From an uncultured Actinomycetota bacterium (GTDB lineage: Bacteria; Actinomycetota; Actinomycetes; JAHEKZ01): 64,000 nt of DNA. The position numbers and the translations under genes are program-made. How positions within the stretch are numbered: position 1 is the first letter of the stretch; the number at the start of each line of letters is the position of its first letter. Shown here in pieces: positions 41,611 through 64,000 of this stretch. The stretch spans positions 1,888,001 through 1,952,000 of the forward strand of contig CAVQYR010000001.1 of the NCBI GenBank assembly GCA_963718235.1. The letters run 5' to 3'. The notes beneath the pieces are model-generated. The model had not been told where the DNA came from and searched no databases. It saw nothing but the letters and a program-made list of their open reading frames with translations.

Positions 41611-41614
<4 letters not shown>

Positions 41615-43535: not shown

Positions 43536-43545
43536 CGCAGATCTC

Positions 43546-44217: not shown

Positions 44218-44218
44218 G

Positions 44219-45960: not shown

Positions 45961-46029
45961 GTCGCTTCCCTTTCACCGTGCGGTGTTACTCCGCGTGGGT
46001 GAGCCCTTTTGGGCCATTCCGAGCAGGTC

Positions 46030-46056
46030 ATCGGCGCACAACGGGGTGGGCTTGAG
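46030..46056 (-). promoter_or_regulatory. Sigma28/FliA-WhiG-type promoter of pilM
   Basis: CTCA-N17-GCCGAT. Confidence 0.8.
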
Positions 46057-46121
46057 CGTTCGGTGGGCGATTGGTGGCCAGTGGCCACAGGTGCTGCAGG
46101 GACGGGTGTGTCGAGCGGCCG

Positions 46122-46919: not shown

Positions 46920-46924
46920 CGAAC

Positions 46925-48574: not shown

Positions 48575-49287
48575 GGACTCGGAGTCGTCTGGGCGATGGC
48601 GTCGGCGTTAGGCAGGGTCACCCTGGACGCGAAGGTCGTCGCGGGCACCCGCGTGCCGTTGCCGACCCGCGTCGAGACCACCACGTCGACGCTGTCGACC
48701 AGCGACAGCGCAGTGGCGTTCAGCGTTGCCGTGCCGAGTGACGTCCCCGTGTTGTCGTAGTAGGTGAACACGGTCTGTCCGGGCACCATGTTGCGGGCCA
48801 GGACCCGGCTCTTGACGACGCAGCCTGGACCTGGGGTGCAGTACTGGTAGTTGTAGTCGTTCGCGGCGTGGGCGTTGGGTGCCTGCACGGTCTCGACCAG
48901 CTCGTTCGCGGCGTTCACCGCGTAGCTGACCCGGCTGGGCCCAATGACGTTGTTGTCGTTGTTGATGTTCGCGTAGAACTGCACCGAGGTCGGTGTCCCC
49001 TGGATGAAGGCAGCAAGGTTGCTGCAGCCGGTACAGGTGGCGTTCAGCTGCGAGGGCAACACCGCTGTGCGCAGGTTCTTGGTCACCGACTCGATGGCCT
49101 GGCGGCCCTGCTGGGTCTGGTCGACGCGGTTCGACTGGTCGCTGACGGTGCGCTGCGTCATGATCAGGGCGGTCTGGACCCCGGCCAGCACGACTCCGAG
49201 GATGAAGATCGTGATGATCACCTCGGTGAGGGTGAAGCCGCCGTCGCCGCTGGCGGCCCTGTTGCGGCGTCGAAGGAACTCGGTCAC
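48571..49287 (-). CDS. Minor pilin (PilW-like)
   Basis: G|FTLTEV prepilin N-methylation motif. Confidence 0.85.
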   Translation of the reverse strand: MTEFLRRRNRAASGDGGFTLTEVIITIFILGVVLAGVQTALIMTQRTVSDQSNRVDQTQQGRQAIESVTKNLRTAVLPSQLNATCTGCSNLAAFIQGTPTSVQFYANINNDNNVIGPSRVSYAVNAANELVETVQAPNAHAANDYNYQYCTPGPGCVVKSRVLARNMVPGQTVFTYYDNTGTSLGTATLNATALSLVDSVDVVVSTRVGNGTRVPATTFASRVTLPNADAIAQTTPSP

Positions 49288-50636
49288 GTCGTCACCGCCG
49301 TCACGGTCGAGGGAGTGGAGGTCGGGAGCAGCCCGGAGATCGTGGGCCAGCTCCCGGAGGGGCTTCGGCCCTGGACCTGGATGACCCAGCTGCCTGCCGG
49401 CAGAGAAGTCAGGAGGTCACCGGACCCGTTGGTGACGCCGAGGTTCAGTGAGGTGTCCGTGGTCAGGCAGCCAGTCGTCGATGAGGGAACCGCGACCACC
49501 GTGGCGTTGGAGAGCCACACCCCGGCTGCGGTCCGGACCCGCACCCGGACAGGTGCCAGCCGGGTCGTGGTCGAGGCCGAGGCGCCCGGCGCTACTACGA
49601 CCGCTGCCGAGCGGGTTCCGCCTGCCGTGGCCGGGTCGGACTGGGAGCAGGTGCCGGCCCAGACCGAGTAGCCGTCGGGGAAGGGCCACAGGGTCGGGAT
49701 CGTCGTGGTGGCGCCGGACGACGCCAGCAGCCGGGTCCCGGTCGGCTGGAGCCCCGTGTTCGCCAGGGTGACGCCAGGCAGGGTCGCGGGCAGGGCATAG
49801 CCGCCCTCGGTCGTGAACGTGACCGCGAGCGTCGAGGCCCGGTCGTAGTTGAAGGTCAGCTGCGAGAGGGTCCCGGAGCTGACGACGACGTTCTTCGAAG
49901 GGCTCTGTGTGCCGTAGAAGTCCACGTAGCCGGCCGTGTTCATCGAGGCGGCGTAGGTACCGAAGCTCGTCACGGAGAAGACCGCGCAGCCGTCGTCTGC
50001 GGTTGTGTCGGTGGAGGTGCCGCCTGGTCCGGACAGCTGAACGAGCTGGCCGATGCGCGGCTGACCGGCGCTGTCCAGGACCTTGACCCCGACGAAGGCC
50101 AGCGTCGAGGACAGGATGCCCTTCTTGGGGGTGAGGATCGTGCTCGTCTCGACCGGCGGCACGTTACCCATCCCCGGCCAGGTCACCTCGACCTTGACCG
50201 ACAGGGTCGGGTACGTGATGGCCGCGCCGCCGTCGCAGGCGCTCTTGCCGGACCCGGCCGGCAGCCACTCCACGTTTCGGGTCACGGTGTATGGCACGCT
50301 GTCGACGTACAGAGGGTTGCCTACCGTTCCCCCGGGCAACGGGTGGGGATTGACCACGAAGTTCGTCGCGGCCAGGGTCGTGGGTCCGGTCAGCGAGGCG
50401 TTGAACTCGTTCCGGACGATCTCCGCCTCACGCGACGCGAGGTTGGCCGCCGCCACCCGGTTCTTGTCCAGCCTCGCCGTCTTCATGACCGCCGCCAGGC
50501 CGGCCACGGTCGCGGCGGCCACGACGGCGAAGATCACCATCGCGATGACCACTTCGATCAGGGTGAGTCCGGCCTCGTCAGAACGAGGTCCGCCACGCGC
50601 GTTGGGGTACCTGGGCACCCGGAAGGCCTTCCGCAT
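49284..50636 (-). CDS. Minor pilin (PilV-like) with C-terminal Ig/carboxypeptidase-regulatory-like domains
   Basis: G|LTLIEV motif; V.V.D..G.P...T..DG repeats; ATG 50636 lies 9 nt after a promoter -10. Confidence 0.82.
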   Translation of the reverse strand: MRKAFRVPRYPNARGGPRSDEAGLTLIEVVIAMVIFAVVAAATVAGLAAVMKTARLDKNRVAAANLASREAEIVRNEFNASLTGPTTLAATNFVVNPHPLPGGTVGNPLYVDSVPYTVTRNVEWLPAGSGKSACDGGAAITYPTLSVKVEVTWPGMGNVPPVETSTILTPKKGILSSTLAFVGVKVLDSAGQPRIGQLVQLSGPGGTSTDTTADDGCAVFSVTSFGTYAASMNTAGYVDFYGTQSPSKNVVVSSGTLSQLTFNYDRASTLAVTFTTEGGYALPATLPGVTLANTGLQPTGTRLLASSGATTTIPTLWPFPDGYSVWAGTCSQSDPATAGGTRSAAVVVAPGASASTTTRLAPVRVRVRTAAGVWLSNATVVAVPSSTTGCLTTDTSLNLGVTNGSGDLLTSLPAGSWVIQVQGRSPSGSWPTISGLLPTSTPSTVTAVTT

Positions 50637-50645
50637 GCCAGATGG

Positions 50646-50672
50646 GTCGGCATCGCCAAACCCCGTCTTGAG
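50646..50672 (-). promoter_or_regulatory. Sigma28/FliA-WhiG-type promoter of the minor-pilin/pilD unit
   Basis: CTCA-N17-GCCGAC. Confidence 0.75.
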
Positions 50673-50723
50673 CGCCGGATCGGTTGATTTGTGCCGTCCT
50701 GGGGCACTCGACCCCCTGGAACG

Positions 50724-50765
50724 CCCGTGGGCCCCGTCCGGCGTGTGACGGACGGGGCCCACGGG
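50724..50765 (-). terminator. Hairpin after major pilin copy 2
   Basis: 17-bp stem CCCGTGGGCCCCGTCCG/CGGACGGGGCCCACGGG. Confidence 0.8.
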
Positions 50766-50774
50766 GTTCGTCGA

Positions 50775-51161
50775 TCAGGTGCAGACGGTCTTGGACAGGC
50801 CGCCTGCGTCGCTGTCGTAGTACCAACGGGTGATCGAGGCATCCACGTTGGCGGCCCGCAGGCAGAATGCTGAGTTGCCACCGGAGATCACCGTGATCGT
50901 GTTGCCGGTCGACGTCTTCAGAGTCGCCGGGAGAGCGGCCAGCGAAGCCGGGTACACGTTGAAGTCGGTGTAGTAGGTCTCCATCTCGTTCGCCACGGTA
51001 CGGAGGTCGGACTTCATCGACGACTCAGTCGCCTTCTTGCGCTGGTTGAGGAAGACCGGGATCGCAATCGCGGCCAGAATACCGATGATGATGATCACGA
51101 CGAGGAGCTCGATCAGCGTGAAGCCGCTGTCGTCCCTCGACGCTCGGATCCGAGCAAACAT
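50775..51161 (-). CDS. pilA: Type IV major pilin, copy 2
   Basis: G|FTLIELLVVIIIIGILAAIAIP; C-terminal Cys pair; GGAAGGAAG RBS. Confidence 0.9.
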   Translation of the reverse strand: MFARIRASRDDSGFTLIELLVVIIIIGILAAIAIPVFLNQRKKATESSMKSDLRTVANEMETYYTDFNVYPASLAALPATLKTSTGNTITVISGGNSAFCLRAANVDASITRWYYDSDAGGLSKTVCT

Positions 51162-51237
51162 GACACTTCCTTCCGCAGCTCGCTCGCCGATTTGCCGGAG
51201 GAGCCACAACTCCACGGATTGCTATGACCCTGGATAC

Positions 51238-51265
51238 TTCGGACCGCCGACCCACCGAACTTGAG
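51238..51265 (-). promoter_or_regulatory. Imperfect sigma28-type promoter of pilin copy 2
   Basis: CTCA-N18-TCCGAA (one mismatch, spacer one base longer). Confidence 0.5.
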
Positions 51266-51307
51266 CCGGAAGTTGTGTTCGTGTGTTGCACGTGCGGGCC
51301 GCGGACG

Positions 51308-51345
51308 CCAGAAGGTGGGCCGACTCTCGTCGACCCACCTTCTGG
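51308..51345 (-). terminator. Hairpin after the middle pilin
   Basis: CCAGAAGGTGGG...CCCACCTTCTGG stem. Confidence 0.75.
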
Positions 51346-51359
51346 TGCAACTGCAACGA

Positions 51360-51807
51360 TCAGCCAGTCACGGATCCCCCGAAGCTGCCCCCGACGGAGA
51401 TGGGACAACCTGGAGAGTTCCGGGGCTGGAGGCCGCCGGCCCTGCTGTCGTAGTACCACTTCGAGCCTGCATCGGCGTGCTGGCCCTCGATGCAGTACCC
51501 GAGCGTGTCGTACGAGGTGATGGTCACCGTGACTCCCGGCGAGGCGACGATGATTTGAGCCGTCCGCAGCGAGGTCGGTGACTGTTCCATAGGTGAAGCT
51601 CGACGTGAAGTAGGTCTCCTGGAACTTCGCGGCAACTTCGATGTCGCTCTTGATGGATGCCTCACGAGCTCGCTGCCTCTGTGACAAGAGGTAGGGGATG
51701 GCGATCGCGGCGAGGATTCCGATGATGATGATGACGACGAGCAACTCGATGAGCGTGAAGCCCTGGTCCTGTCTGTCACGGCGAACCGTCGGTGCGCTGT
51801 GATCCAT
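51360..51807 (-). CDS. Type IV pilin, divergent middle paralog (one extra base near 51555)
   Basis: G|FTLIELL motif in ORF 51025-51807; C-terminal YCI..WYYDS..GG..C in ORF 51360-51866. Confidence 0.85.
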
Positions 51808-51826
51808 GACATTTCCCCTTGAGACG

Positions 51827-51870
51827 CCTCATGGGTCCCGCCCGAAGTGTGACGGACGGGACCCATGAGG
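51827..51870 (-). terminator. Hairpin after major pilin copy 1
   Basis: Minus-strand stem CCTCATGGGTCCCGTCCG/CGGGCGGGACCCATGAGG. Confidence 0.8.
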
Positions 51871-51877
51871 TTGTCGA

Positions 51878-52270
51878 TCAGGTGCAGACGGTCTTGGACA
51901 GGCCGCCGCCGTCGCTGTCGTAGTACCAGACGGCGATGGACGCGTCCACGTTGTTGGCACGCAGGCAGAATGCCGACGCCCCACCGGACACGACGGTCAG
52001 GGTGTTGCCGGTCGACGTCTTGAGTGTCGCCGGGAGTGCAGCCAGCGAAGCCGGGTACAGGTTGAAGTCGGTGTAGTAGGTCTCCATCTCGTTCGCCACG
52101 GTACGGAGGTCGGACTTCATCGACGACTCAGTCGCCTTCTTGCGCTGGTTGAGGAAGACCGGGATCGCAATCGCGGCCAGAATACCGATGATGATGATCA
52201 CGACGAGGAGCTCGATCAGCGTGAAGCCGCCGTCTCGCTCTTCCATCGCCTTGCGGATACGAGCGTGCAT
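51878..52270 (-). CDS. pilA: Type IV major pilin, copy 1
   Basis: G|FTLIELLVVIIIIGILAAIAIP; GGAAAGGGA RBS. Confidence 0.92.
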   Translation of the reverse strand: MHARIRKAMEERDGGFTLIELLVVIIIIGILAAIAIPVFLNQRKKATESSMKSDLRTVANEMETYYTDFNLYPASLAALPATLKTSTGNTLTVVSGGASAFCLRANNVDASIAVWYYDSDGGGLSKTVCT

Positions 52271-52339
52271 CTGATGTCCCTTTCCGGACGAGAATCGTCG
52301 AGCCTTCGACATTCAGCCCTCAAGGACTCTTGTGGAGTC

Positions 52340-52419
52340 CGACCGAGGTAGCTGGGCTGACCCGAGGGTCCCCTGGCTTTGCGTCCCCGCCTCTCGGCGG
52401 GTTTGCCCGTTCTGGCCGT
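52340..52419 (-). ncRNA. c-di-GMP-I (GEMM) riboswitch in the pilin 5' UTR
   Basis: Minus strand GGGCAAACCCGCC-GAGA-GGCGGGGACGCAAAGCCAGGGGACCCUCGGGUCAGCCCAGCUACC has the GGCAAACC / GNRA / GGACGCAAAGC / CAGC..UACC hallmarks; P1 CGGCC/GGUCG. Confidence 0.92.
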
Positions 52420-52440
52420 TGGCTCTCTTACGTCTGGGTT

Positions 52441-52467
52441 TTCGGCTCTCCGCTCGCCCATCTTGAG
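52441..52467 (-). promoter_or_regulatory. Sigma28/FliA-WhiG-type promoter of the riboswitch-pilin transcript
   Basis: CTCA-N17-GCCGAA, about 20 nt upstream of the aptamer. Confidence 0.82.
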
Positions 52468-52515
52468 GGCAATCGGGGTCGACTTCGGGGCGACCCCGCG
52501 AAGGTCGAGTGCTGC

Positions 52516-53739
52516 CTACTTGATGAGGTCGAAGACCTTGAAGATCGGGAGGTACAGGGCGATGATCATCGACCCGACCATGCCACCCAGGACGGCGATC
52601 ATCAGCGGCTCGATCAGCGAGGTGAGCGCCTCAGTGGTGGCCTCGACCTCCTGGTCGTAGAAGTCGCTGATCTTGTGCAGCATCGCGTCCAGCGCGCCCG
52701 TGTCCTCGCCGACGGCGAGCATCTGGACGACCATGGGCGGGAAGACCGAGTGGTTGGCCAGGGGCTGCGTGAGCGACTCACCGTTGCGCACACTCTCCTG
52801 GACGTCCCTGACGGCTCGCGCCACCACGACGTTGCCCGAGGTGTCGGCCACGATGTCCAGGCTCTGCAGGATCGGCACGCCGGCGTGCAGCAGCGTTCCG
52901 AAGTTACGGGTGAAGCGGCTCAGCGCGATCTTCTGGAAGAGGTTGCCGAAGACCGGCAGCTTGAGCTTCAGCGGGTCGACGAAGTTGCGAACCCGCTCGT
53001 CGCGCTTGATCTTCTTCCAGACGACGAGGCTCACGATGCCCAGGATCAGGATGATCGGGAAGAACGTCTTGAGCAGGTTGCTGAGGTTCACCAGGATCAG
53101 CGTGGGCGTCGGGAGCGTCGCTCCGAGACCGTCGAACATCTTGGCGAACACAGGCACGATGAACAGCAGCATGCCCGTGACGGCCAGGAGGGCGATGACG
53201 AAGACCACGACCGGGTACGTCATGGCCGACTTGATCTTGCCCCGCAGCTTCACCTCGGCCTCGTAGTTGGCGGCGATCTGCAGCAGCACCTGGTCCAGGA
53301 AGCCGCCGACCTCACCCGCTCGCACCATGTTCACCATGAGTGGCGGGAAGACATCCTCGTGCGAAGCGAGGGCGTTCGACAGCGACTGACCGGTCTCGAC
53401 CTCGTTGCGGACCTCGCCGAGGACCTCAGCCAGCTTCTTGTTCGGAGTCTGCTCGGACAGGATGTTCAGCGCCCGCAGCAGGGAGAGACCAGAGTTGATC
53501 ATCGTCGCGAACTGCCGAGACATGACCGCCAGGTCCTTGAGCTTGACCTTGGCCCCCATGCCGGGGAGCGTCAGGTCCCGCTTCATCCCAGCCTTGTGCT
53601 CGGAGATCGACATGGGTGCATAGCCCATGCTCTTCAGCTTGCTGGCCACCGCAGACGGTGACTCCGCGTCGAGGGTGCCGGAGACCACGTTCCCGCTGCG
53701 GTCCCGGACGGAGTACTCGTAGGTCGTCGTCGATGCCAT
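52516..53739 (-). CDS. pilC: Type IV pilus platform protein PilC (GspF family)
   Basis: RQFATMI.SG, AGEVGG, AMTYP, VGEDTG, LIEP. Confidence 0.96.
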   Translation of the reverse strand: MASTTTYEYSVRDRSGNVVSGTLDAESPSAVASKLKSMGYAPMSISEHKAGMKRDLTLPGMGAKVKLKDLAVMSRQFATMINSGLSLLRALNILSEQTPNKKLAEVLGEVRNEVETGQSLSNALASHEDVFPPLMVNMVRAGEVGGFLDQVLLQIAANYEAEVKLRGKIKSAMTYPVVVFVIALLAVTGMLLFIVPVFAKMFDGLGATLPTPTLILVNLSNLLKTFFPIILILGIVSLVVWKKIKRDERVRNFVDPLKLKLPVFGNLFQKIALSRFTRNFGTLLHAGVPILQSLDIVADTSGNVVVARAVRDVQESVRNGESLTQPLANHSVFPPMVVQMLAVGEDTGALDAMLHKISDFYDQEVEATTEALTSLIEPLMIAVLGGMVGSMIIALYLPIFKVFDLIK

Positions 53740-53749
53740 GGCTAGCCTC

Positions 53750-55812
53750 TCAGCCCCGTCCGGTGAGTCGGTTGAAGTCCTCGATGTGGTGGCACTTCTC
53801 CATGCCCACCTCGTGGGTGATCCGACCCTTGTTCACCAGGTCGGCGAGGTGCTGGTCCATCGTCTGCATGCCGAACTTGGAGCCGGCCTGCATCGCGCTG
53901 TAGATCTGGTGCGTCTTGCCCTCGCGGATGAGGTTGCGCACCGCAGGAGTGGCGACCATGACCTCTACGGCCACCTGTCGTCCCCGCCCGTCCGCCGTGC
54001 GGCACAGGGTCTGGCAGACCACGCCCTGAAGGGCGCCCGCCAGCTGGGTCCGCACCTGCTGCTGCTGGTGGGGCGGGAAGGCGTCGATCATGCGGTCGAT
54101 CGTCTGGGCGGCGTCCTGGGTGTGCAGGGTGGCGAAGACGAGGTGGCCGGTCTCGGCCGCGGTGAGCGCGATCGAGATCGTCTCCAGGTCACGCATCTCA
54201 CCGACCAGGATGATGTCGGGGTCCTGCCGCAGCACGTGCTTCAGGGCGTTGGCGAACGAACGGGTGTCCTCGCCCACCTCGCGCTGGTTCACGATGCACG
54301 ACTGGTGACGGTGGAGGAACTCGATCGGGTCCTCACACGTCATGATGTGGTCTTTGCGGGTCCGGTTGGCGAGGTCGACGATCGATGCGAGCGTGGTCGA
54401 CTTGCCCGAACCGGTCGGCCCCGTGACGAGCACCATGCCACGGGGGATGTTCGCGAAGTTGGCCACCTGGGGCGGGACGCCGAGCTCCTCCAGCCGCTTG
54501 ATCTCGAACGGGATGAGCCGGAACGCCGCTCCCAGCGAGTCGCGCTGACGGTAGAGGTTGACCCGGAACCGGGCTCGGCCAGGGACCGAGTACGCGAAGT
54601 CCAGCTCGAGCTCCTCCTCGAACTTCTCGCGCTGCTTCTGGGTGATCGCGGCGTACATGATCCGCTGGATCACCGGCGGCGTGAGGACCGGGTAGTCCTC
54701 CATCTGGGCGAGGTGTCCGTTCAGGCGCACCGCTGGGCGGGCTCCGGTCGTGAGGTGGAGGTCGGAGGCGCCGGTCTCCAGCACGTGGATCAGCAGGTCG
54801 GACAGCGAGATCTCCTCGTCGCCCACGGTCTGCTCGGTGCTGCTGCGCTGGTACGCCGACCCGTCCGCCTCGGCGTCCATCAGACCGACCGTCGGCTCGC
54901 CGTAGGGGTCCTCGTAGGTCCCGTCGCCGTCGTGGGCGTCCACCGATGCCAAGGAGCCGGCGAAGTCCTCCGGGCTCGCGCCCGGGTGGACGTGGTCCGC
55001 CACCGGCTCCGGGGCCGCGGGCAGGACCTCGACTGGTTCCGGGGCCACCACCTCGAGGTCAGCGGACTCCTCGGGGGCGGGCTCGGCACTGGACTCCCCC
55101 GCCTGCTCGTAGAAGGCCTGGTAGTCCGTTCGCGAAGGCACCTCGGGGACCAGCTCCACCTGAGCGGCCTCCTCGGCGGCGATCGCCAGCGACATCGGCA
55201 GCGAGCCGCCCAGGGGGGACTCGGGGGCCGACGGCTGGGTCACCGGCTCGACGAGCAACGTCGGGGCAGGCTCGGACTCGCTAACGTCGGCCTGGACCTC
55301 GGGCTGGGCCTGCACCTGCGGCTGCGGCTCGGGCTGGGCCTGGGCCTGGGGCTCGGGCTGGGGCTCGGGCTGGGCCTGGGCCTGGGCTCGGGCTGGGGCT
55401 CGGGCTGGGCCTGGGCCTGGGGCTCGGGCTGCGGCTCGGGCTGGGCCTGGGCCTGGGGCTCGGGCTGCGGCTCGGGCTGGGCCTGGGCCTGGGGCTCGGG
55501 CTGGGGCTCGGGCTGGGCCTGGGCCTGGGGCTCGGGCTGGGCCTGGGCCTGGGGCTCGGGCTGGGCCTGGGGCTCGGGCTGGGCCTGGGGCTCGGGCTGG
55601 GCCTGGGGCTCGGCGTCGACGAAGGCCGACGACGGCTCCGGGGTCGGTGCCGGCTCCGGTGCCGGCTCCGGTGCCGGTTCCGGTGCGTGCGCGGTCGGCG
55701 GCTCGGCCGGCGTCACCGGCGGTGCCTGGGTGAAGAATTCATAGATCGGCGTCGACGTGCGCTCGTCCTCTGACGGCGTGGTTGACGGTCCGCTGTAGCC
55801 CGAGGTCTCCAC
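53750..55812 (-). CDS. pilT: Retraction ATPase PilT with a long Pro/Glu/Gln-rich N-terminal extension (one base missing near 55385)
   Basis: ASDLHL, GPTGSGKST, EDPIE, GEMRD, TLHT, AVRNLIRE motif; GTG 55812 with GAAGGAGG RBS. Confidence 0.92.
55303..55612 (-). repeat. Hexanucleotide-based tandem repeat encoding (QA/QP/EP)n
   Basis: About 50 units of CAGGCC/CAGCCC/GAGCCC on the coding strand. Confidence 0.95.
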
Positions 55813-55879
55813 GAGACGGGCCTCCTTCGACGCGCGCGGTTGGGTGCGGGCGGTTGCTCGCACGTCCTTCTGGCAGGGC

Positions 55880-55906
55880 ATCGGCGTACCGGCGTCACCC
55901 CTTGAG
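55880..55906 (-). promoter_or_regulatory. Sigma28/FliA-WhiG-type promoter of pilT-pilC
   Basis: CTCA-N17-GCCGAT. Confidence 0.8.
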
Positions 55907-55947
55907 CCCCCGCCGTACGGACTAGCCCGGCCGTGGTCGGGCCGTCG

Positions 55948-57630
55948 TCACACGACGACGCGCAGGATCTCCTCCATCGAGGTGATCCCCCGGGCGACCT
56001 TGTCCATGCCGTCCAGGCGAAGCGTGATCATTCCCTCGTTGCGCGCGGTCTCGCCGATGACCGTGGCCGAGGAGTGCTCGACCGCATGGCGTTCCACGGC
56101 CTCGGAGACGGCCATCACCTCATGCAGGGCCAGACGGCCCTTGTATCCCGTCTTGGAGCACGAGCTGCAGCCCTTCGGCCGGTGCAGGGTCGGGATCGGC
56201 TCACCGTCCTGCCACGGGTACCTCCCGGCGACGAGCTCCGCGGGGGAGGGCTGGTAGGGCTCCTTGCACTTGCTGCACAGTCTGCGGGCCAGACGCTGGG
56301 CCAGCACGCAGTCCAGCGCCGACCCGACGAGGAACGGCTCGAGCCCCATCTCGGTGAGCCGGGTCACCGCCGAAGGAGCGTCGTTGGTGTGCAGGGTGGA
56401 CAGCACGAGGTGGCCGGTGAGCGCCGCCTCGACAGCGATCTGGGCCGTCTCGTGGTCGCGGATCTCACCGATCAGCACGATGTCGGGGTCACAGCGCAGG
56501 ATCGAGCGCAGGGCCGCGGCGAAGGAGAGACCAGCCTTCGCGTTGGTCTGTACCTGGTTGATCCCGGGGATCCGGTACTCGACCGGGTCCTCCACCGTGA
56601 TCACGTTGACCTCAGGACGCGCGATCTGGTTGAGCGTGGCGTAGAGGGTCGTCGACTTCCCGGAACCGGTCGGTCCGGTCACCAGGATCATCCCGTAGGG
56701 CTTGCTGAAGCTCTGGTGGAAGACGTCGAAGTTGTGCTGGGAGAACCCCAGGTCGGCCAGGTCCAGCCGGGTGTTGGAGTTGTCCAACACACGCATGACC
56801 ACCTTCTCGCCCCACACGGTGGGCAGCGTGGCCACGCGGAGGTCGATCTTGCGGCCCTGGTGGGTCACTGAGAGGCGACCGTCCTGCGGAACACGTCGCT
56901 CGGCGATGTTGATGTCGGCCATGATCTTCAGCCGGCTCGTGACACCGGACTGGATCGTCTTGGGAGACTTCATGACCTCGTGCAGCACCCCGTCGATGCG
57001 GTAGCGCACGATCAGGTGGTGCTCCGTGGGCTCGATGTGGATGTCGGAGGCTCGGTCCTGGATCCCCTGGGTGATGAGCAGGTTGACGTACTTGACGATC
57101 GGGGCGTCCTCGACGACCTCCTTGATCTTGGAGAGGTCGTCCTCCTCGTTGTTGTCCTCGAGCACCGCCTGAAGGTCGTCCAGGGCGTCGTCGGCCCGGA
57201 AGTACCGGTCGATGGCGGCCGCGACGTCGGCCCGCGTCGCCACGACCGGCTTGATGTCGACGAAGATGTTCGCCGACGCCAGCGTCGCCTTGACGTCGTC
57301 GATGGCGAAGACGTTCGCCGGGTCGGCCATCGCCAGCAGCAGCTTGCCGTCGTCGTCGATCCGGATCGGCATGGCGCTGTGCTTGCGGCACATGTTGCCA
57401 GGAACGCGGGCGACGATGCTCGCGTCCACCGGGTAGTCCCCCAGGTCCACGAACTCCAGGCCGATCTGCTGGGCCAGGGCCGCGACCAGCTGGGACTCGG
57501 TCAGCACCCCTTGGTCGACCAGGACCCGGCCGAGTGCCCGCCCCGCCTTCTGGTGCTCGCTGTGGGCGGTGATCAGCTGGTCCTCAGAGACCAGCCCACG
57601 CTCCAGCAGGATGTCCCCCAGCTGCTTCAC
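55948..57630 (-). CDS. pilB: Type IV pilus extension ATPase PilB with an N-terminal MshEN-like domain
   Basis: ASDIHIEP, PQDGR, GPTGSGKST, EDPVEY, tetra-Cys motif, GYKGR; N-terminal QLG.ILL..GLV / ALG.VLV..GVL repeats. Confidence 0.97.
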   Translation of the reverse strand: MKQLGDILLERGLVSEDQLITAHSEHQKAGRALGRVLVDQGVLTESQLVAALAQQIGLEFVDLGDYPVDASIVARVPGNMCRKHSAMPIRIDDDGKLLLAMADPANVFAIDDVKATLASANIFVDIKPVVATRADVAAAIDRYFRADDALDDLQAVLEDNNEEDDLSKIKEVVEDAPIVKYVNLLITQGIQDRASDIHIEPTEHHLIVRYRIDGVLHEVMKSPKTIQSGVTSRLKIMADINIAERRVPQDGRLSVTHQGRKIDLRVATLPTVWGEKVVMRVLDNSNTRLDLADLGFSQHNFDVFHQSFSKPYGMILVTGPTGSGKSTTLYATLNQIARPEVNVITVEDPVEYRIPGINQVQTNAKAGLSFAAALRSILRCDPDIVLIGEIRDHETAQIAVEAALTGHLVLSTLHTNDAPSAVTRLTEMGLEPFLVGSALDCVLAQRLARRLCSKCKEPYQPSPAELVAGRYPWQDGEPIPTLHRPKGCSSCSKTGYKGRLALHEVMAVSEAVERHAVEHSSATVIGETARNEGMITLRLDGMDKVARGITSMEEILRVVV

Positions 57631-59456
57631 TGCGCTTCCTCTCCAGGAACGTCGTCGCCTGACCCCTCCGGGGTCTCATCGGTCGTCTCCCCCTTCTGCT
57701 GGAGCCAGGTGAGCAGTGCGCTCGTCCCCGGGACGGCCTCTTGGGTCGCCGAGCGGACGAGTGCCACGGCGGCCGGGCGCTGGCCCGCAGCCACCAGGAC
57801 GTCGGCCCGCCCCTCGACGGTCGACGGTCGCGGCTGGTCCGGGAAGGCCGCCTCCGACACCTGCAGCCCTTCGGGGACCCGTCCCAGACGGACCAGGGCG
57901 AGGGCACGCGCCTGGGCCAGCACCGGGTCGTCGGCAGCGGCCCGTGCGGTCCGGTCGAACGCCTCTTCGAGCCGGGCCCGGTCCGCGGCGTCGGCCGGGA
58001 CCAACCTGCGCATCGTGGCCAGGTCGACCCGGTCCGTCGGCAGCCCTGCGGCCCATCCCTGGACCAGTCCCGTCGTGCCCAGCAGCCTGCCGACCGGGCC
58101 CAGCATCGACAGCGGCGCCTGCTGGGCTGCGCCGAGCACACTGCTGCCGAGCGCCAGGACGACGGCGACCCCGGTGAGCACGGCCACGGCCCGCGCTGGG
58201 CCGGCGGACGATTCGGGCGTCGGCGACCGCTCGGGGGCCACGAGCACGGCCCCGACGATGGCGAAGGCCGCCAGCAGGGCGGGGTAGTCCCAGTCGAAGT
58301 CGAACAGCGCATGGGCACCCAGGGTGAGGACCGCGGCGGCAGCGGCTGTCCTGGTCACGTCGAGCCGAGCCCGGGTCAGGACGAGCCGAGCCGCGGCCCA
58401 CAGGAGCCAGCCGGTGACCAGCACCACCGGGACGGCGAGCAGCAGTCCGCCGTCGGTCAGCGCCTGCAGCCACCCGTTGTGCACCAGTGCGCTCGCGGAT
58501 GACTCAGCGGGCATCAGGTGCTGACCAGCCGACTCGAACGACCCGAAACCGGCCCCCTGGACCGGGTGCCGCAGCCACAGCTGCCAAGCCGCCGTGAAGT
58601 AGTCGATCCGGATCCCGAGGCTGGACCCGGCGGACTCGACCCGGGAGCCGAGCGCTCCCGAGCCGCTGCCCGAGCCCACCGACAGCGTCAGCACCCGTGC
58701 GACCAGCGGGACGGCGGCGGCCACCGCTGCCAGCCGAACGGCCGCACCCCAGTTGCGCACCGTCGCCGCGGCGACGACCACGGCGATCGCGACCAGCAGC
58801 AAGGTGGCCGCCCGGCTCCCGGACAGCACGATCGCCGCACCGAGGACGGGCGCGAGAACGACACCGAGCGCCCGGGGGCGGCCGGACGCCGACCCGGCGA
58901 GGACCAGCGCGATCGAGGCGGGGGCGAGCATGAAGCCGGCGAAGGAGTTGTGCCAGAAGTACGTGCCGACCCACGGTGCCGTGGCGGTCCCGCCGCCGAA
59001 CCAGGCCCACCAGGCCTGGAACGCCTGGTCCAACCCGACCGCCACGACGACCAGGAGGACCGCCATCCGCCTCTGGGCGGTCGATCCGGCCGCGGCCACG
59101 GCCAGGCCCAGCAGCCCCGCGTACAGCCACGACGCAGCGTCATCCAGGCCCTGCCACCCCGTCGCGCTGATCGCGTTCGAGGCGAGCGCGCACAGGCCCG
59201 GACCGAGAGCGGCAACGAGCGACCACGTCGGGAGCACACGCCAGGGACGGGAGACGACCAGCAAGGGCACCAGGCAGGCCAGGGCCGAGGCGAGAGACAG
59301 CCCGGCCCGTCCCCCTGAGGCGTGACTGAGCCACAGCCCCCATCCCGCGGCCGCCAGCAGCCCGGCTGCTGCCAGGGCCCAGGGGACGTCCGCGGACGGC
59401 GACGCGGTCGCCTCGGCGGGGTCGGTCCTTGCGGGACCGGTCAGGCGCACCGTCAC
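57627..59456 (-). CDS. O-antigen ligase (Wzy_C) family membrane protein; candidate pilin oligosaccharyltransferase
   Basis: Many TM helices, SGSRAA, R..Y..AW..W..HPVQGAGFGSF, HNGWLQ, H.LFDFDW; C-terminal helical/TPR-like tail. Confidence 0.8.
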   Translation of the reverse strand: MTVRLTGPARTDPAEATASPSADVPWALAAAGLLAAAGWGLWLSHASGGRAGLSLASALACLVPLLVVSRPWRVLPTWSLVAALGPGLCALASNAISATGWQGLDDAASWLYAGLLGLAVAAAGSTAQRRMAVLLVVVAVGLDQAFQAWWAWFGGGTATAPWVGTYFWHNSFAGFMLAPASIALVLAGSASGRPRALGVVLAPVLGAAIVLSGSRAATLLLVAIAVVVAAATVRNWGAAVRLAAVAAAVPLVARVLTLSVGSGSGSGALGSRVESAGSSLGIRIDYFTAAWQLWLRHPVQGAGFGSFESAGQHLMPAESSASALVHNGWLQALTDGGLLLAVPVVLVTGWLLWAAARLVLTRARLDVTRTAAAAAVLTLGAHALFDFDWDYPALLAAFAIVGAVLVAPERSPTPESSAGPARAVAVLTGVAVVLALGSSVLGAAQQAPLSMLGPVGRLLGTTGLVQGWAAGLPTDRVDLATMRRLVPADAADRARLEEAFDRTARAAADDPVLAQARALALVRLGRVPEGLQVSEAAFPDQPRPSTVEGRADVLVAAGQRPAAVALVRSATQEAVPGTSALLTWLQQKGETTDETPEGSGDDVPGEEAQ

Positions 59457-59824
59457 CTCGGGGTGATCGGCCGAACGAGTGACGGCCTTGACCTGTTCGC
59501 CGGGTCGGACCCGCCGGCAGGACCGCGAGTCGACCCACGGTCGGTCGGCTGAGGCGGCCGATCGCCGATGAGCGCCGCAGCGACGAGCCGGAAGGCGTGC
59601 GAGCGGGGGTCGTCGCGCAGCAGCTGCACCTGGGTACCGTCACTGAAGCCCAGCGCCACGTCGGCGTCGGGAACCGGGTCCGTGCCTCCTCGAGGCCATC
59701 GGTCGGGGACGGGTCCCACCTCGGAGCTCGCGGGGGCGACCGGGGAGTCGACTGGCCGCACACCCGTGCCGATGCGGTTTCCCGACGCGTGACGGCCACG
59801 AGGCTGTCGCCGGAACCAGCTCAT
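59453..59824 (-). CDS. Small hypothetical protein in the pil operon
   Basis: Fills the gap between the GTPase and ligase genes, stop overlaps the next start; compact motif VALGFSDGTQVQL..DDPR..AF. Confidence 0.6.
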   Translation of the reverse strand: MSWFRRQPRGRHASGNRIGTGVRPVDSPVAPASSEVGPVPDRWPRGGTDPVPDADVALGFSDGTQVQLLRDDPRSHAFRLVAAALIGDRPPQPTDRGSTRGPAGGSDPANRSRPSLVRPITPR

Positions 59825-59842
59825 GGTCTCGCCCGGGACGGG

Positions 59843-60430
59843 CTACACCCCTGCCGGCTGGGCTTCGACGTCGTCCAGCACGGCGTACAGCAGGGCGAGC
59901 AGCACCGACTTGACCGAGTCCTTGTCGGTCGCGTCGCAGGGTACGAGCGGCACGGAGGCGTCGACCCCGACCGCCTGGCGCAGGCGCGCCGACTCGACGT
60001 CGTCCAGCTGCTCCAGCCGGTTGACCGCGACGACGAACGGCACCCGGGCCATCCGCTGGAACGCCTCGCGAATCCCCGACGCCTCGGCAAGGGAGTCGGC
60101 CCGGGTCGGGTCGACGAGCAGGATGTACCCGAGCATCCCCTCGCCGAGGATCTCCCACATGAAGTCGAACCGTTCCTGCCCGGGCGTCCCGAACAGGTAG
60201 AGCACGAGGTCGCGGTCGATCGTGATCCGCCCGAAGTCCATCGCCACCGTCGTCTCGTTCTTGCGGGACTTGGTGTGGTCGGTGATGCCGCGCTCGGTGG
60301 ACAGCACGGTGATCTCCGACACGGTCCGGATGAGCGTCGTCTTGCCCGCGGCGAACGGACCCGTGATGACGATCTTCACCGCCTGGCCGCCGTGGCGACG
60401 CCGCTTGTTGGCGGATTTCGTGGTCATCAC
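59843..60430 (-). CDS. Small Ras-like GTPase (MglA/CvnD family)
   Basis: G1 GPFAAGKTT, TTVAMDFG, LFGTPGQERF, VAVNR, CDA. Confidence 0.92.
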   Translation of the reverse strand: MMTTKSANKRRRHGGQAVKIVITGPFAAGKTTLIRTVSEITVLSTERGITDHTKSRKNETTVAMDFGRITIDRDLVLYLFGTPGQERFDFMWEILGEGMLGYILLVDPTRADSLAEASGIREAFQRMARVPFVVAVNRLEQLDDVESARLRQAVGVDASVPLVPCDATDKDSVKSVLLALLYAVLDDVEAQPAGV

Positions 60431-61870
60431 AGCCCCCGGACGCCGGCGATGAGCCTCAGCAGGAGGCTGCGGTTGACCGAAGGGTCACGCTCGATCGCGC
60501 TGTGCCCGATCGGTTGGGCAGCAGCGGCGGCCCCACCCATCGAGCCGCCCATGGAGACCGGTGCGCTCATCGGACGGGTGCATCGGGTGGGCCATCGGCT
60601 GGGCCATCGGCTGGGCCATCGGCTGGGCCACGGGACCACTCGGGGGTGCCGCAGCGTGGTGCGCCACGACGTGCTGGGCGGCCGGCTGCTCGACCGCACC
60701 GGGCTGGATGACGGGGGGGCCGGGCACGTTCCTGGGCTGCACCGGTGCGACCGGTGTCCCCGGGGCCGGGAAGCCGGCCCGGGAGGGTGTGGACTCCGGC
60801 TCGGGGTGATCGACGGACCGCTTGGGCAGGAACGGCTCGGGGCGCGGCGGAACCACGTCCTCCGGCTGGTGTGCGCCGCCGAGCCGAGCGGCCGGGGCTT
60901 GCGGGTGCCCCGGGGGCAGGGCCGGCGACGAGGTCGGCTGACCGGGTGGGTACTGCTGGGCCGGCGCCTGGACCGACAGCTGGGCCGACTGCTGGACTGA
61001 CTGCTGGGGGTACGACGAGGGGTCCGCCACCAGCGGGGCCACGATCGACGTGCCGTTCGGCACCGCTTCCGGTGCAGCGTCCGGTCCGGCGTCCGGTGCC
61101 TGCTGGTACCTGCCCTCCAGTACGCCGAGCAGGGCCTGGCGACGCAGGACGACGGTCACATGGTCCGCCGCGTCCTCGTCACGCAGCAGGAGCAGTCCCC
61201 GCTGCACCAGGGAAGCGAGGGCAGCCACGACCCCGTACTGCCCGGCACCACTCAGGGCGACCAGGTCGCCGACGCTTCGGGAGCCGTCGATCAACGACAG
61301 CAGGGCCCACTCGTCGCGGCTGACGCTCGGGTCGTCGTCCAGCACCACCGGCATGGTCAGGACGACGTCGGGCGAGGGGATGACCTTGGAGACCCCGTCC
61401 CAGGTGTCGCGACGGGCCGTCGCCTCGGTCACGACCTCCTCGGAGGACACCGAGATCCCGACCTCGTCGGGGTTGGCCTCGTCGACGGTGAACGAGAAGT
61501 CGCCGTTGGGCCAGCGCAACAGGTCGAAGACGGCGTCGATCGTGTGCTCGGTGGCCAGGGTGCGCAGGACGTCCGCGTCTGCGGAGCCGGACTCAAGAAC
61601 GGCCCGGGCCACCCCGATCGACTCCGCCGCACAGCGATCGACGGCGCGACGCAGCGCGGCGTCGTCGACCACGCCCAGGCCGACGAGGCGACGGGCCAGA
61701 CCCTGCCGGGCCTCGTCGCTCACCGCTCCGGTGATCTCGCCCTGGGCGAAGTAGACCGCGCCGGAGACCTGGCCGTTGGCCAGGTGCAGTCCCCCGGACT
61801 TCTTCGTCAGGCTCAACAGCTGGAAGACGTCCGGGAGGCTGAACGCGTCGAGTGAACCCTCGAGCTTCAC
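60427..61870 (-). CDS. DUF4388/PATAN-domain protein (one extra base near 60575)
   Basis: MKLEGSLDAFSLPDVFQLL..KSGGL..G.VYF..GEI, W..GDFSF, winged-helix-like W.LLSLIDGSRSV; C-terminal RDPSVNRSLLLRLIAGVRGL is coupled to the GTPase start. Confidence 0.85.
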
Positions 61871-61951
61871 GTCTCGTCCCGTCTCTGGGTCTGGTGGGTG
61901 GGTCTGGTGGGTGGGTCTAGGAGCCGGAGCCGTCGGGTCGAGACGCCGGCC

Positions 61952-62689
61952 TCACGACCACGACGCCGGCCCGGTTCGGGGACCTGAGCCGTTGCTGCGG
62001 GTGTCCGGCCCCTGCGGCGGCTCGGGCTGGTAGGTCACCGGCGCAGGGCGCGGGACCTGCTGGGCGACCGGCTCGGCGAGCGGCTGGGCAAGGGGCTGGA
62101 CCACGGGCTGGCGCAGTGGGTCCGGCTGCACCGGGTACTGCGGCTCCGAGCGCTGCGGCGGGTACGGCGCGTCCTCGACCCTCTGCTCGACCGGTCGTTG
62201 GGGAGCCGGGTAGCGGTCGTCGTGGTGCGACGGCGCGACCTGCGGGGGGAACGACGCCGGCTGCTCGGCCGGTCGGTCGTCGACCCGCAGGACGGCTGCG
62301 ACGGCCTGCGCCGCCCGCCTCACCTCGAACAGGAGCAGTCCGACCTTGGCGCCACGGGCACCGACGGCCACGAGCACCGCCTCGTCGTCCGCCGACACCA
62401 GGAAGACCGTGCCGGACTCGCCCTCGACGTAGACCTGGGACAGGTCCCCGCGGCCCAGTCCCTGCGCGGCGCGCTCACCCAGGGACAACAGGGCAGCGCT
62501 CATGGCGGCCACCCGGTCCTCGTCCATGCCCGGCGGCAACGCCGAGGCCATGGGCAGGCCGTCGAAGGAGACCACTGCTGCGGCCTCCATCTCGGGAGCC
62601 TGGCTGAGCAAGGTGGTCAGCACCGCGTCGAGCTGGCCGGATCGGCTGGCAGGACCCGTGCTGAGCAGGTCGGAGTAACGGTCGGTCAT
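61952..62689 (-). CDS. Roadblock/LC7 (MglB-like) protein with a Pro/Gln-rich tail
   Basis: AAAVVSFDGLPMAS, DRVAAMSAALLSLGER, VYVEGESG, KVGLL. Confidence 0.92.
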   Translation of the reverse strand: MTDRYSDLLSTGPASRSGQLDAVLTTLLSQAPEMEAAAVVSFDGLPMASALPPGMDEDRVAAMSAALLSLGERAAQGLGRGDLSQVYVEGESGTVFLVSADDEAVLVAVGARGAKVGLLLFEVRRAAQAVAAVLRVDDRPAEQPASFPPQVAPSHHDDRYPAPQRPVEQRVEDAPYPPQRSEPQYPVQPDPLRQPVVQPLAQPLAEPVAQQVPRPAPVTYQPEPPQGPDTRSNGSGPRTGPASWS

Positions 62690-62736
62690 GGCGGACCCTC
62701 TCGCGCTGGCTGCGAGCGGTCGACCACCGCTCACCG

Positions 62737-63660
62737 CTACTGCTTCGGCGGCCCCGCTGCTCCCCTTGAGCGACCGCCGTCCGCGTGACGTCGCTCCCGC
62801 AGCTCGGCCAGACCGGCGTCGCGCAGGACCGAGGCCGAGACGTCGCGCCCGGTCATCAGGGTGACCTGCCCGCGGGCCTGGTGGACCAGCATCTCCAGGC
62901 CACCGGCGACCGCGCCCCCGGCGCTCGCCCACGCGGCGCCCAGCGCGGTCGGCCAGGGCTCGTAAACCACGTCGACGAGCAGTCCCAGCGGGGAGCGACC
63001 TGCGCCCACCGCGTCGACCAGGTGGTCGGCCGCGCCGGTCGGGACGGTGGACACCACGACGTCGGCGTCCAGCCCGGCACCGGCGTCGGACCACGGGCAA
63101 ACCGACACGGCGGGGCCGCCGGCGGGGTCGGGGCCGACCGTGCCGAGCGCGGCCACCTGCTGCACCCATGACGCAAGGTCGGGCAGCGCGTCAGGTCGAC
63201 GCGCACACACGGTGACCTGCTCCGCGCCCACGTCCACGAGCGCGGCGATCGCCGACCGGGCGGTCGCCCCGGATCCCAGCACCGTCGCCGTCCGCGGGCG
63301 GACCACCCCGTGCTCGCCGAGCACGGTGACCAGGCCGGGCACATCGGTGTTGTGACCCACTCGCCCGGCCGGGGTCAGCAGCACCGTGTTCACCGAACGC
63401 AACGTGCGCGCCAGCGGGTCGATGGCGTTGAGCAGCGGGACCACCGACTCCTTCAACGGCATGGTCAGGGAGAGCCCGACCCAGTCGTCGTCCAGTCCGT
63501 CGAGAAAGGCGCCGAGACCGTCCGGGCCCAGGTCGACGGCCTCGTAGGTCCACGGAAGACCGAGCGACCGGTACGCGGCCCGGTGCAGGGCCGGAGACAG
63601 CGAGTGCGTGATCGGACGCCCCAGGACGGCGGCTCGCCGGACGCCGGGCCCGCCCACCAC
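62737..63660 (-). CDS. aroE: Shikimate dehydrogenase
   Basis: HSLSP, SLTMPLK, VNT, NTD, GSGATA, DVVY, GLEML. Confidence 0.95.
   Translation of the reverse strand: MVGGPGVRRAAVLGRPITHSLSPALHRAAYRSLGLPWTYEAVDLGPDGLGAFLDGLDDDWVGLSLTMPLKESVVPLLNAIDPLARTLRSVNTVLLTPAGRVGHNTDVPGLVTVLGEHGVVRPRTATVLGSGATARSAIAALVDVGAEQVTVCARRPDALPDLASWVQQVAALGTVGPDPAGGPAVSVCPWSDAGAGLDADVVVSTVPTGAADHLVDAVGAGRSPLGLLVDVVYEPWPTALGAAWASAGGAVAGGLEMLVHQARGQVTLMTGRDVSASVLRDAGLAELRERRHADGGRSRGAAGPPKQ
62744..62770 (-). promoter_or_regulatory. Sigma28/FliA-WhiG-type promoter of the Roadblock...pilB operon (inside the aroE 3' end)
   Basis: CTCA-N17-GCCGAA. Confidence 0.8.
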
Positions 63661-64000
63661 TAGGGAACCGCCGCGTAGAACTCGTCCTTCCACACCAGGA
63701 ACTGGTCGTAGTCGGCGGTGAACCGGGTGGCGTCACTTCCCGGGGCCACGGCGACGAAGTAGACCCAGTCCCCGTCCGGTGGGTGGAGCGCGGCGTCGAG
63801 GGCCGCCTCCCCAGGAGAGTTGATCGGTCCGGGCGGGAGTCCGCCGTTGGCATAGGTGTTGTACGGCGAGTCGACCCCGAGCTGGTCGTTGTCCAAGGTG
63901 AGGTCGTCGGTGCCGAGCGCGTAGTTCACCGTCGAGTCGAGCTGCAGGGGCATCCCCGCGTTGAGCCGGTTGTAGACGACCCGGGCCGCCCTCCCGAAGT
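63660..64000 (-). CDS. mltG: Endolytic transglycosylase MltG (3' part only)
   Basis: ARVVYNRL..MPLQLDST, SPYNTY, GLPPGPINSPG, YFV. Confidence 0.93.
   Translation of the reverse strand, partial: FGRAARVVYNRLNAGMPLQLDSTVNYALGTDDLTLDNDQLGVDSPYNTYANGGLPPGPINSPGEAALDAALHPPDGDWVYFVAVAPGSDATRFTADYDQFLVWKDEFYAAVP

Follow-up and report, generated by a model that had tools for sequence, protein, structure and literature searches.

Small Ras-like GTPases are, to our knowledge, rare as bacterial regulators, and only MglA of the Myxococcus type and the GTPases of conservons have been studied. We know of no function for the GTPase family treated here, though it occurs in several phyla. A member of this family is encoded in a 64,000-nt stretch of DNA from an uncultured actinobacterium (contig CAVQYR010000001.1, positions 1,888,001 to 1,952,000; referred to as the window; G+C content about 72%). 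Genes for a Roadblock/LC7 protein, a PATAN (DUF4388) protein and a 123-amino-acid (aa) mini-protein accompany it in the interval between aroE and the pilus gene pilB. It is proposed, with a probability of roughly 0.6, that these four genes make up a G-protein switch encoded at the start of a type IVa pilus cluster, and that the switch acts on PilB via the PATAN protein. The position between aroE and pilB, together with a promoter type found at the pilus genes, provides a direct and testable hypothesis for what the GTPase family controls. For type IV pili in this Gram-positive phylum, the switch would be the first regulator proposed to act after translation.

MglA-type GTPases have been divided into groups. 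According to the available text of Wuichet and Sogaard-Andersen 2014 (PMC4316618), Group 1 MglA is defined by a TVPGQ motif and by an arginine finger that adjoins the threonine of G2. Groups 2-5 have GTPGQ and a threonine replacing that arginine. Group 2, the conservon GTPases, has NxFD as its G4 motif, and Group 5 is found in Actinobacteria, Chloroflexi and Aquificae. The same text reports some Group 1 and Group 5 genes near PATAN genes, and cites Makarova et al. 2006 for PATAN near MglB. By motifs, neighbours and taxon range, the module in the window fits the catalogued "Group 5 MglA plus PATAN" neighbourhoods: it shares GTPGQ, the threonine in place of the arginine finger, a coupled Roadblock gene, a neighbouring PATAN gene and the range of phyla. 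In that account, as far as its available text goes, the PATAN link is occasional, and a link to a pilus operon, a mini-protein and a sigma-28 promoter are not described. An earlier reading of the window, made from the sequence only, had taken the module for an undescribed type. The type is already catalogued, because PATAN genes beside MglA/MglB homologues have been in print since 2006 and 2014; it is the pilus-linked form that was found in no paper. A full-text literature search, with most subscription journals outside its coverage, returned no paper on this module at an actinobacterial pilus operon and none that combines DUF4388, Roadblock and GTPase.

The MglA-MglB systems of Myxococcus xanthus and Thermus thermophilus also pair a small GTPase with a Roadblock GTPase-activating protein (GAP) in connection with type IV pili. 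Unlike those systems, the locus described here lacks TVPGQ and the intrinsic arginine finger, and its genes lie inside the pilus operon and include PATAN. Conservons, or AGPS (CvnA-D; MfpB-E), belong to the same phylum and likewise combine a Roadblock protein with a GTPGQ-type GTPase; conservon-type paralogues are 44-49% identical to the GTPase of the window. For the mycobacterial conservon GTPase, the available text of two papers reports MfpC (DUF742) as the guanine nucleotide exchange factor (GEF) and MfpD (Roadblock) as the GAP (PMC11343762, PMC9769811), so that Mfp has a Roadblock GAP and a winged-helix GEF. In contrast to conservons, the locus has no CvnA kinase and no DUF742 match, its G4 motif is NRLE and not NxFD, and its GTPase falls in a separate clade. 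The available text of a 2026 survey of AGPS (PMC13343842) mentions neither PATAN nor a pilus link.

Two further systems resemble parts of the locus. The PatA-type PATAN-receiver regulators of Synechocystis (PixE, PixG and LsiR) are encoded with the pilus motor and act on it, binding the N-terminal part of PilB1 and the N-terminal domain of PilC. According to the available text of a preprint, the PATAN domain is by itself able to bind PilC and the N-terminal part of PilB1, the latter on the evidence of yeast two-hybrid and localisation experiments, and to reverse phototaxis (bioRxiv 10.1101/2021.06.11.447907). Unlike these regulators, the protein in the window has no receiver domain and carries a winged helix after PATAN, and its input would be a GTPase and not phosphorylation. 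The WhiG/sigma-28-controlled type IV pilus clusters known from Rubrobacter and Actinoplanes (PMC8325347; preprint PMC12871210) resemble the cluster of the window in their internal sigma-28-type promoters, in a genome that has WhiG and no flagella. Neither paper mentions Roadblock, GTPase, MglA or DUF4388, and PATAN is unmentioned in PMC12871210.

Conserved gene order upstream of pilB

The genes from aroE to pilB all lie on the minus strand, as determined by frame analysis of G+C at third codon positions (GC3) and open reading frame (ORF) calls. In the direction of transcription they follow an mltG-like gene, truncated by the window end, in this order:

62737-63693, minus strand: aroE
61952-62689, minus strand: Roadblock/LC7 gene (Robl_LC7, PF03259, E 1.8e-17; 245 aa)
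60485-61870, minus strand: DUF4388/PATAN gene (PF14332, E 2.9e-24; 461 aa)
59843-60430, minus strand: small GTPase gene (ATP_bind_1, 7.5e-19; Ras, 7e-7; 195 aa)
59453-59824, minus strand: mini-protein ORF (123 aa; no family)
57627-59456, minus strand: Wzy_C gene (PF04932, E 5e-13; 609 aa)
55948-57630, minus strand: pilB (T2SSE, 5e-138; MshEN, 9e-20; 560 aa)

The six genes from Roadblock to pilB were recovered in the order given by the sequence-only reading, and the Pfam scan upheld its family assignments. The gaps from aroE to pilB are, in order, 47, 81, 54, 18, -4 and -4 nt. Three overlapping stop/start junctions had been counted in this range; there are two, both of the form GTGA, at 59453-59456 (small ORF and Wzy_C) and 57627-57630 (Wzy_C and pilB).

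The gene order is conserved. A GTPase orthologue (66-96% identity) is present in 26 of 40 related genomes, and four genomes have conservon-type paralogues only. Thirteen of the 26 orthologue genomes were examined, comprising all nine from other families and four of the 17 from the same family. All 13 loci of the window's class have PATAN and the GTPase behind mltG-aroE, and 12 have Roadblock, which L021 misses. The genes pilB-pilT-pilC follow the GTPase within 2.2 kb in 11 of these loci; in the remaining two the pilB orthologue lies 10.6 and 14 kb on, on the same strand. In an even sample of 400 genomes across the phylum, 62 genomes matched the GTPase with an E value no higher than 1e-45, and none of these is a member of the window's class. 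Twenty of these 62 genomes, from 12 families, were examined, with unpublished genomes avoided at this step, and Roadblock, PATAN and the GTPase adjoin pilB-pilT-pilC in 20/20 loci, with pilB at most 3.2 kb away. The tallies over the 40 related and 400 phylum genomes include unpublished ones (G033; G418, G087, G262, G212, G274, G057, G041 and others).

Taken over the 33 loci, Roadblock (32/33), PATAN (33/33) and the GTPase (33/33) lie upstream of pilB on the same strand, at a distance of at most 3.2 kb in 31 and of 10.6 and 14 kb in two. The idea that this trio belongs with pil genes, central to the sequence-only reading, is borne out by this linkage. The GTPase was never found without PATAN in these loci, and mltG and aroE flank the module in nearly all of them. 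Five actinobacterial loci from metagenome-assembled genomes with enough flank have the same gene order. Variants also occur. Two pilB copies may flank the module, and in another form, from one group of genomes of other classes (L035, L036, L045-L048), there are two Roadblock genes, a PATAN protein of 790-1465 aa, and aroE between the GTPase gene and pilB. PilB is present in 281 of the 400 sampled genomes, including 60 of the 62 that are GTPase-positive; in the two GTPase-positive, PilB-negative genomes the GTPase gene lies at a contig end.

The Wzy_C protein, an O-antigen-ligase-like membrane protein with a weak TfpM match (6.5e-5), falls outside the conserved module, because only L023 among the 33 related loci has Wzy_C in this position. 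It was rejected as a module member on that count and is a lineage-specific insert, with pilin O-glycosylase as a candidate function.

The GTPase family extends beyond the phylum. A scan of species representatives found it in 29 Chloroflexota-labelled loci and in one Aquificales, one Aquifex and one Caldisericum locus, at 52-60% identity, closer than the conservon paralogues. In these loci a PATAN gene is always directly upstream of the GTPase (29/29 for the Chloroflexota-labelled loci), and Roadblock is adjacent in three. No pilus genes were found near these pairs within flanks of up to 6 kb per side, several contigs being shorter; the neighbours of the pairs (loci L072-L104 and L110) are unrelated and include an alpha/beta hydrolase, a hexapeptide transferase and one GAF-GGDEF protein. 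The distribution may be read as an ancient core pair of PATAN and GTPase, in which PATAN is the part tied to pilB, with the union of the whole unit and the pilus operon as an actinobacterial feature.

Proteins of the module and promoter-like sites

The GTPase is, judged by its motifs, of the MglA-family "GTPGQ" type and not MglA proper, and the earlier description of it as MglA-like does not stand in the strict sense. Its motifs are G1 GPFAAGKT, G2 ETTV, G3 GTPGQ and G4 NRLE. An alignment of 32 orthologues has the P-loop, the G2 Thr-Thr pair (T60, T61) and GTPGQ invariant in 32/32, and a threonine with no arginine at the position of the arginine finger beside the G2 threonine. These are the features of Groups 2-5; of the Group 1 traits neither TVPGQ nor the arginine finger is present, and a coupled Roadblock gene is found two genes upstream. 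The adjacent PATAN gene and the spread to Chloroflexota and Aquificota are as in Group 5 with PATAN. G4 is N[KR]x[DE] in most orthologues and does not match the conservon form NxFD. The best match in a PDB sequence search was Rab23 (1.4e-5), and Thermus MglA (3t12) matched at 1.4e-3. The gene is single-copy in the genome.

The sequence-only reading had compared the locus with conservons and noted that CvnA and CvnC are absent from it. The operon has no histidine kinase gene and no Pfam DUF742 gene, and its GTPase belongs to a separate family. A maximum-likelihood tree of four conservon GTPases and 32 pilus-linked ones, taken without Group 1, 3, 4 and 5 reference sequences, separates the window's family from the CvnD-type GTPases with a split support of 100/100. 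Because of this split, and because PATAN-GTPase pairs occur outside Actinomycetota, the locus is not a reduced conservon, and a conservon that has lost its kinase was rejected as a candidate.

The Roadblock protein, of the MglB/CvnB type, has its domain at about aa 20-135, followed by a tail rich in proline and glutamine. Its relatives in the PDB are 7f8m (6e-21) and cvnB5, 3leq (7e-10). An Asp-Gly pair is conserved in the consensus of 28 Roadblock orthologues; the available text of PMC4316618 notes such a pair for Groups 2-5. The operon copy is the only Robl_LC7 gene in the genome, and its product is predicted to be the GAP of the GTPase. Roadblock proteins MglB and MfpD act as GAPs, according to the text available of PMC9769811. 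Low-complexity tails rich in proline and glutamine end both the Roadblock protein (61952-62290, about 110 aa) and the PATAN protein (60485-61100, about 200 aa). In L030 (10247-12277, minus strand), one 676-aa ORF, uninterrupted by a stop, encodes both Roadblock and PATAN. A natural fusion of this kind argues for physical association, and it could also be a sequencing artefact.

The PATAN protein scored 85.9 bits against PF14332 (gathering cut-off 25). Its conserved part, in an alignment of 32 orthologues, is aa 1-232, made up of a PATAN domain with a helical insert (aa 1-160) and a winged helix (about aa 185-232); a P/Q-rich tail follows. DUF4388 is its sole Pfam match, no receiver domain is present, and a PDB sequence search found nothing. 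The winged helix matches MarR_2 in 22 of 31 members and DUF742 (PF05331) in four, and aligns with the winged helix of CvnC/DUF742 at 86% probability (hhalign, E 4.8e-6; four conservon loci in five rows, one row from the unpublished genome G033, locus L027). L027, which also served as a conservon example, is the sole sequence taken from an unpublished genome. The likeness to CvnC, possibly a specific kinship, matters because MfpC is reported as a GEF and MfpD as a GAP. The RPYxxTGGR motif of CvnC was not seen on inspection of the PATAN alignment, and no operon protein matched DUF742 in the Pfam scan. The gap between the PATAN and GTPase genes is at most 5 nt in 21 of the 33 actinobacterial loci and 54 nt in the window.

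The insert of the PATAN domain matches the MshE-type cyclic di-GMP (c-di-GMP) motif model NF053729 in 18 of 32 orthologues (best 6e-15). In the window's class only two of 13 PATAN proteins match, weakly, and the PATAN protein of the window has no match at E 1 or better. As read from the alignment, Leu-Gly has become Leu-Ala or Val-Ala, and the closing glutamine is lost. Sensing of c-di-GMP by the PATAN protein of the window was considered and is not supported, as the motif model is unmatched.

The mini-protein matched no Pfam or NCBIfam family. It has a basic N-terminus and a core of the form V-x-L-x-F-x-D-G-[ST]...L...DPR...F...A..L. A hidden Markov model (HMM) of this 35-40-residue core, built from 11 sequences found by pattern, was significant in 18 loci (the 11 training loci and seven independent ones), each time on the GTPase strand and 16-577 nt downstream of that gene, and found nothing significant elsewhere in 1.74 million six-frame residues. 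On this evidence the mini-ORF is taken to be a real, conserved fourth gene of the module. The possibility that it is spurious was ruled out by the HMM result, despite a weak GC3 signal. The N-terminus, basic in the window's class, looks by eye like a membrane helix in three loci of other classes (L033, L037, L039). The mini-protein gene is absent from four loci, where the stop of the GTPase gene overlaps the start of pilB.

Sites resembling sigma-28/WhiG-type promoters were scored against the consensus TAAA-N15-GCCGATAA (N15/16), the flagellar/WhiG form as in PMC8325347. Those in the pilus cluster are:

62742-62769, minus strand: promoter-like site TCAAG-N15-GCCGAAGC, 8 of 12 consensus positions; it overlaps the aroE stop and precedes the Roadblock ATG by about 50 nt
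59464-59491, minus strand: second site TCAAG-N15-GCCGATCA, 10 of 12 consensus positions, within the 3' end of the mini-ORF and just upstream of the Wzy_C start
55905, 52466, 50671 and 46055, minus strand: further sites of this type (position of the -35 element)

The motif TCAA-N16-GCCGA occurs seven times in the window, compared to 0.30 expected from shuffles. Genome-wide it occurs 69 times over 3.17 Mb, which corresponds to about 1.4 times in every 64 kb; this density, too, is above the shuffle expectation. Six of the seven sites are on the coding strand of the pilus cluster of about 17 kb, where they precede the Roadblock gene, Wzy_C/pilB, pilT, the first pilin, the minor pilins and pilM. 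Eleven sites of the genome-wide list, five of them in the pilus cluster, fit the stricter form TCAAG...GCCGA[AT]. Among the 33 related loci, T[CA]AA-N15-17-GCCGA lies within 100 nt upstream of the Roadblock start in 18 (11/13 in the window's class, 7/20 in other classes), and motif totals are 84 sites on the operon strand and 15 on the opposite strand. The genome encodes a FliA/WhiG-family sigma factor (TIGR02479, 283 bits; cut-off 190) and, at 95% completeness, has no match to flagellin. No sigma-70-like promoter was found in 55700-62900, and the single terminator-like site there is not above chance (0.9 expected).

A sigma-28-type promoter for the module is a well-supported prediction, because the motif is enriched locally and conserved before Roadblock and the sigma factor is encoded. 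It is not the sole promoter, because the better site at 59464-59491 precedes Wzy_C-pilB. The sequence-only reading had a single promoter of this type at the head of the operon: the site before Roadblock is real and conserved, and the singularity fell with the second site. Since pilB has a sigma-28-type site of its own, it need not depend on the upstream promoter.

A proposed switch on PilB and competing explanations

PilB is, from its sequence, the type IV pilus extension ATPase, though its TIGR02538 score (634 bits) is under the 675-bit cut-off. Its N-terminus keeps an MshEN-type c-di-GMP motif (NF053729, 1.1e-15, aa 3-55). In the proposed switch, the module would be expressed from the same class of sigma-28/WhiG-type promoter as the pilus genes. 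The GTPase would alternate between GTP- and GDP-bound states, and a dimer of the Roadblock protein would accelerate GTP hydrolysis and serve as the off-switch. The PATAN protein is predicted to be the coupling factor between the GTPase and PilB. It would be the direct partner of the GTPase, the two genes being probably translationally coupled in most relatives, and its PATAN domain would bind PilB at the N-terminal region, and possibly also PilC. Whether the GTPase carries GTP or GDP would in this way decide the place or time at which the extension motor works, with the mini-protein as a likely accessory subunit. We infer these contacts and the direction of regulation. In favour of the switch are the domains and invariant motifs, the gene order and co-occurrence with PilB, the loci that keep PATAN by pilB in genomes with no GTPase match, the published roles of PATAN and Roadblock proteins cited above, the shared promoter type and the fusion in L030. 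The loci described above and below form a natural deletion series for the motor contact: the full module, PATAN with the GTPase, PATAN by itself, no module at all, giant PATAN fusions and a Roadblock-PATAN fusion.

Several findings weigh against a switch of this kind. Pili do not need the module, because 221 of the 281 PilB-positive genomes have no GTPase match at E 1e-45 (a number obtained by subtraction, with a threshold that misses some GTPases, for example in L066) and eight of 15 inspected PilB loci without such a match are empty. When these 15 loci were scanned with HMMs from the alignments of this analysis, six had PATAN alone between aroE and pilB, one had PATAN and GTPase, and eight had nothing. 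The basic job of the PATAN-GTPase pair may not be specific to pili, because the pairs of Chloroflexota, Aquificota and Caldisericota are without pilus genes. In addition, the PATAN insert in the window has lost residues of the c-di-GMP motif that are retained in many orthologues, nucleic acid could be a ligand of the winged-helix domain, and pilB has its own promoter-like site (59464-59491).

Three other explanations bear on the same evidence. The target of a general PATAN-GTPase switch could lie elsewhere, for example in the cell envelope or division, with proximity to pilB a frozen accident of the mltG-aroE | aroC locus. The pairs of Chloroflexota and Caldisericota among unrelated housekeeping genes are in keeping with this, as are mltG and aroE at the flanks of nearly all loci. 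However, the order Roadblock-PATAN-GTPase-pilB is kept on one strand throughout the phylum with a shared promoter type, PATAN alone stays by pilB where the GTPase is gone, and 60 of 62 GTPase-positive genomes have PilB, all of which make an accident of position very improbable. It is also unlikely that the module controls transcription or translation of pil genes in the manner of conservons/AGPS, with the winged helix binding DNA or RNA. The matches to MarR-type helix-turn-helix models in 22/31 orthologues and the hhalign alignment to the CvnC/DUF742 winged helix (86%) point in that direction, and in the available texts MfpC (DUF742) acts on the translation of mfpA (PMC11343762) and the Cvn8 system controls gene expression (PMC13343842). 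Yet protein-protein contacts of the PATAN domain with PilB1 and PilC are documented (bioRxiv 10.1101/2021.06.11.447907, as far as available), the RPYxxTGGR motif of CvnC was not seen in the alignment, the DUF742 model touches only four of 31 members, and MglA-type systems target protein complexes and not genes, as the available text of PMC13343842 has it.

The sequence-only reading favoured polarity or reversal, with the PATAN protein as a putative GEF or scaffold. In an oscillator of this type, the GTPase and its Roadblock GAP would mark opposite poles, like MglA and MglB of Myxococcus, sort PilB and PilT to one of the poles, and change poles upon a chemosensory signal. The genome has CheW-domain and methyl-accepting chemotaxis protein (MCP) genes, the latter behind sigma-28-like sites, and no flagellin, and it encodes a further PATAN protein, part of which is a long coiled coil; coiled-coil partners of MglA are known in Myxococcus. 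The available text of PMC4316618 provides precedent in MglA, MglB and SofG. However, the GTPase is without TVPGQ and without the arginine finger, the two Group 1 hallmarks, and the sequence is silent on localisation, so that a polarity role is doubtful.

The switch on PilB can be extended, tentatively, to a broader proposal. Actinomycetota, which are monoderm, may ancestrally gate the pilus extension motor by a G protein. A GTP-bound GTPase of the Group 5 type would load the PATAN-winged-helix adaptor on the c-di-GMP-sensing N-terminus of PilB, Roadblock would reset the switch and the mini-protein would tune it. A WhiG-type sigma factor would co-express the whole unit with the pili, possibly with chemosensory steering independent of flagella. 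If true, this would provide a first concrete target for the widespread Group 5 MglA GTPases, for which no function is known, and for PATAN proteins outside cyanobacteria.

Remaining pilus genes and related genes elsewhere in the genome

Downstream of pilB, in the direction of transcription, are pilT, pilC, three pilin-like genes, minor pilins, a pilD-like ORF, pilM, pilN, pilO, aroC and aroB. Their coordinates, with the genes assigned by Pfam and NCBIfam, are:

42882-55905, minus strand: rest of the pilus cluster (pilT, pilC, pilins, minor pilins, pilD, pilM, pilN, pilO)
41611-42789: aroC

The pilD-like ORF (46122-47195, minus strand), identified by eye from its translation, encodes a putative prepilin peptidase and completes the pilus cluster. 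PilT has an apparent N-terminal extension of about 330 aa, rich in P, E and Q and with PEPQAQ repeats (55240-55881 and 53750-55738, minus strand). The GTG at 55812, behind GAAGGAGG, begins a frame other than that of the PilT core, and both frames are open across the repeats. The conflict suggests either an indel in the repeats, from assembly or from natural change in length, or two overlapping genes.

A second PATAN-winged-helix protein of 894 aa is encoded elsewhere in the genome (contig C2:36841-39525, minus strand, equal to L147:342-3026). It scored 35.8 bits against DUF4388 and is 25% identical to the operon PATAN protein over 197 aa. Its MshE-type c-di-GMP motif is near-canonical (34 bits; cut-off 38), and the protein also contains about 600 aa of EAWxxHxxWL-type repeats and a region rich in Glu, Ala and Arg. 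The gene is preceded by TCAAC-N15-GCCGAAGG, which is sigma-28-like, and a Shine-Dalgarno sequence.

The genome has three CheW-domain matches, and two MCP genes lie behind sigma-28-like sites (C1:333647-335173 and C2:275223-277361). These genes and sites, with no flagellin, suggest that a chemosensory pathway could serve the pili. Sigma-28-like sites also precede genes for a GH18 protein, an SLT transglycosylase and an M15 peptidase.

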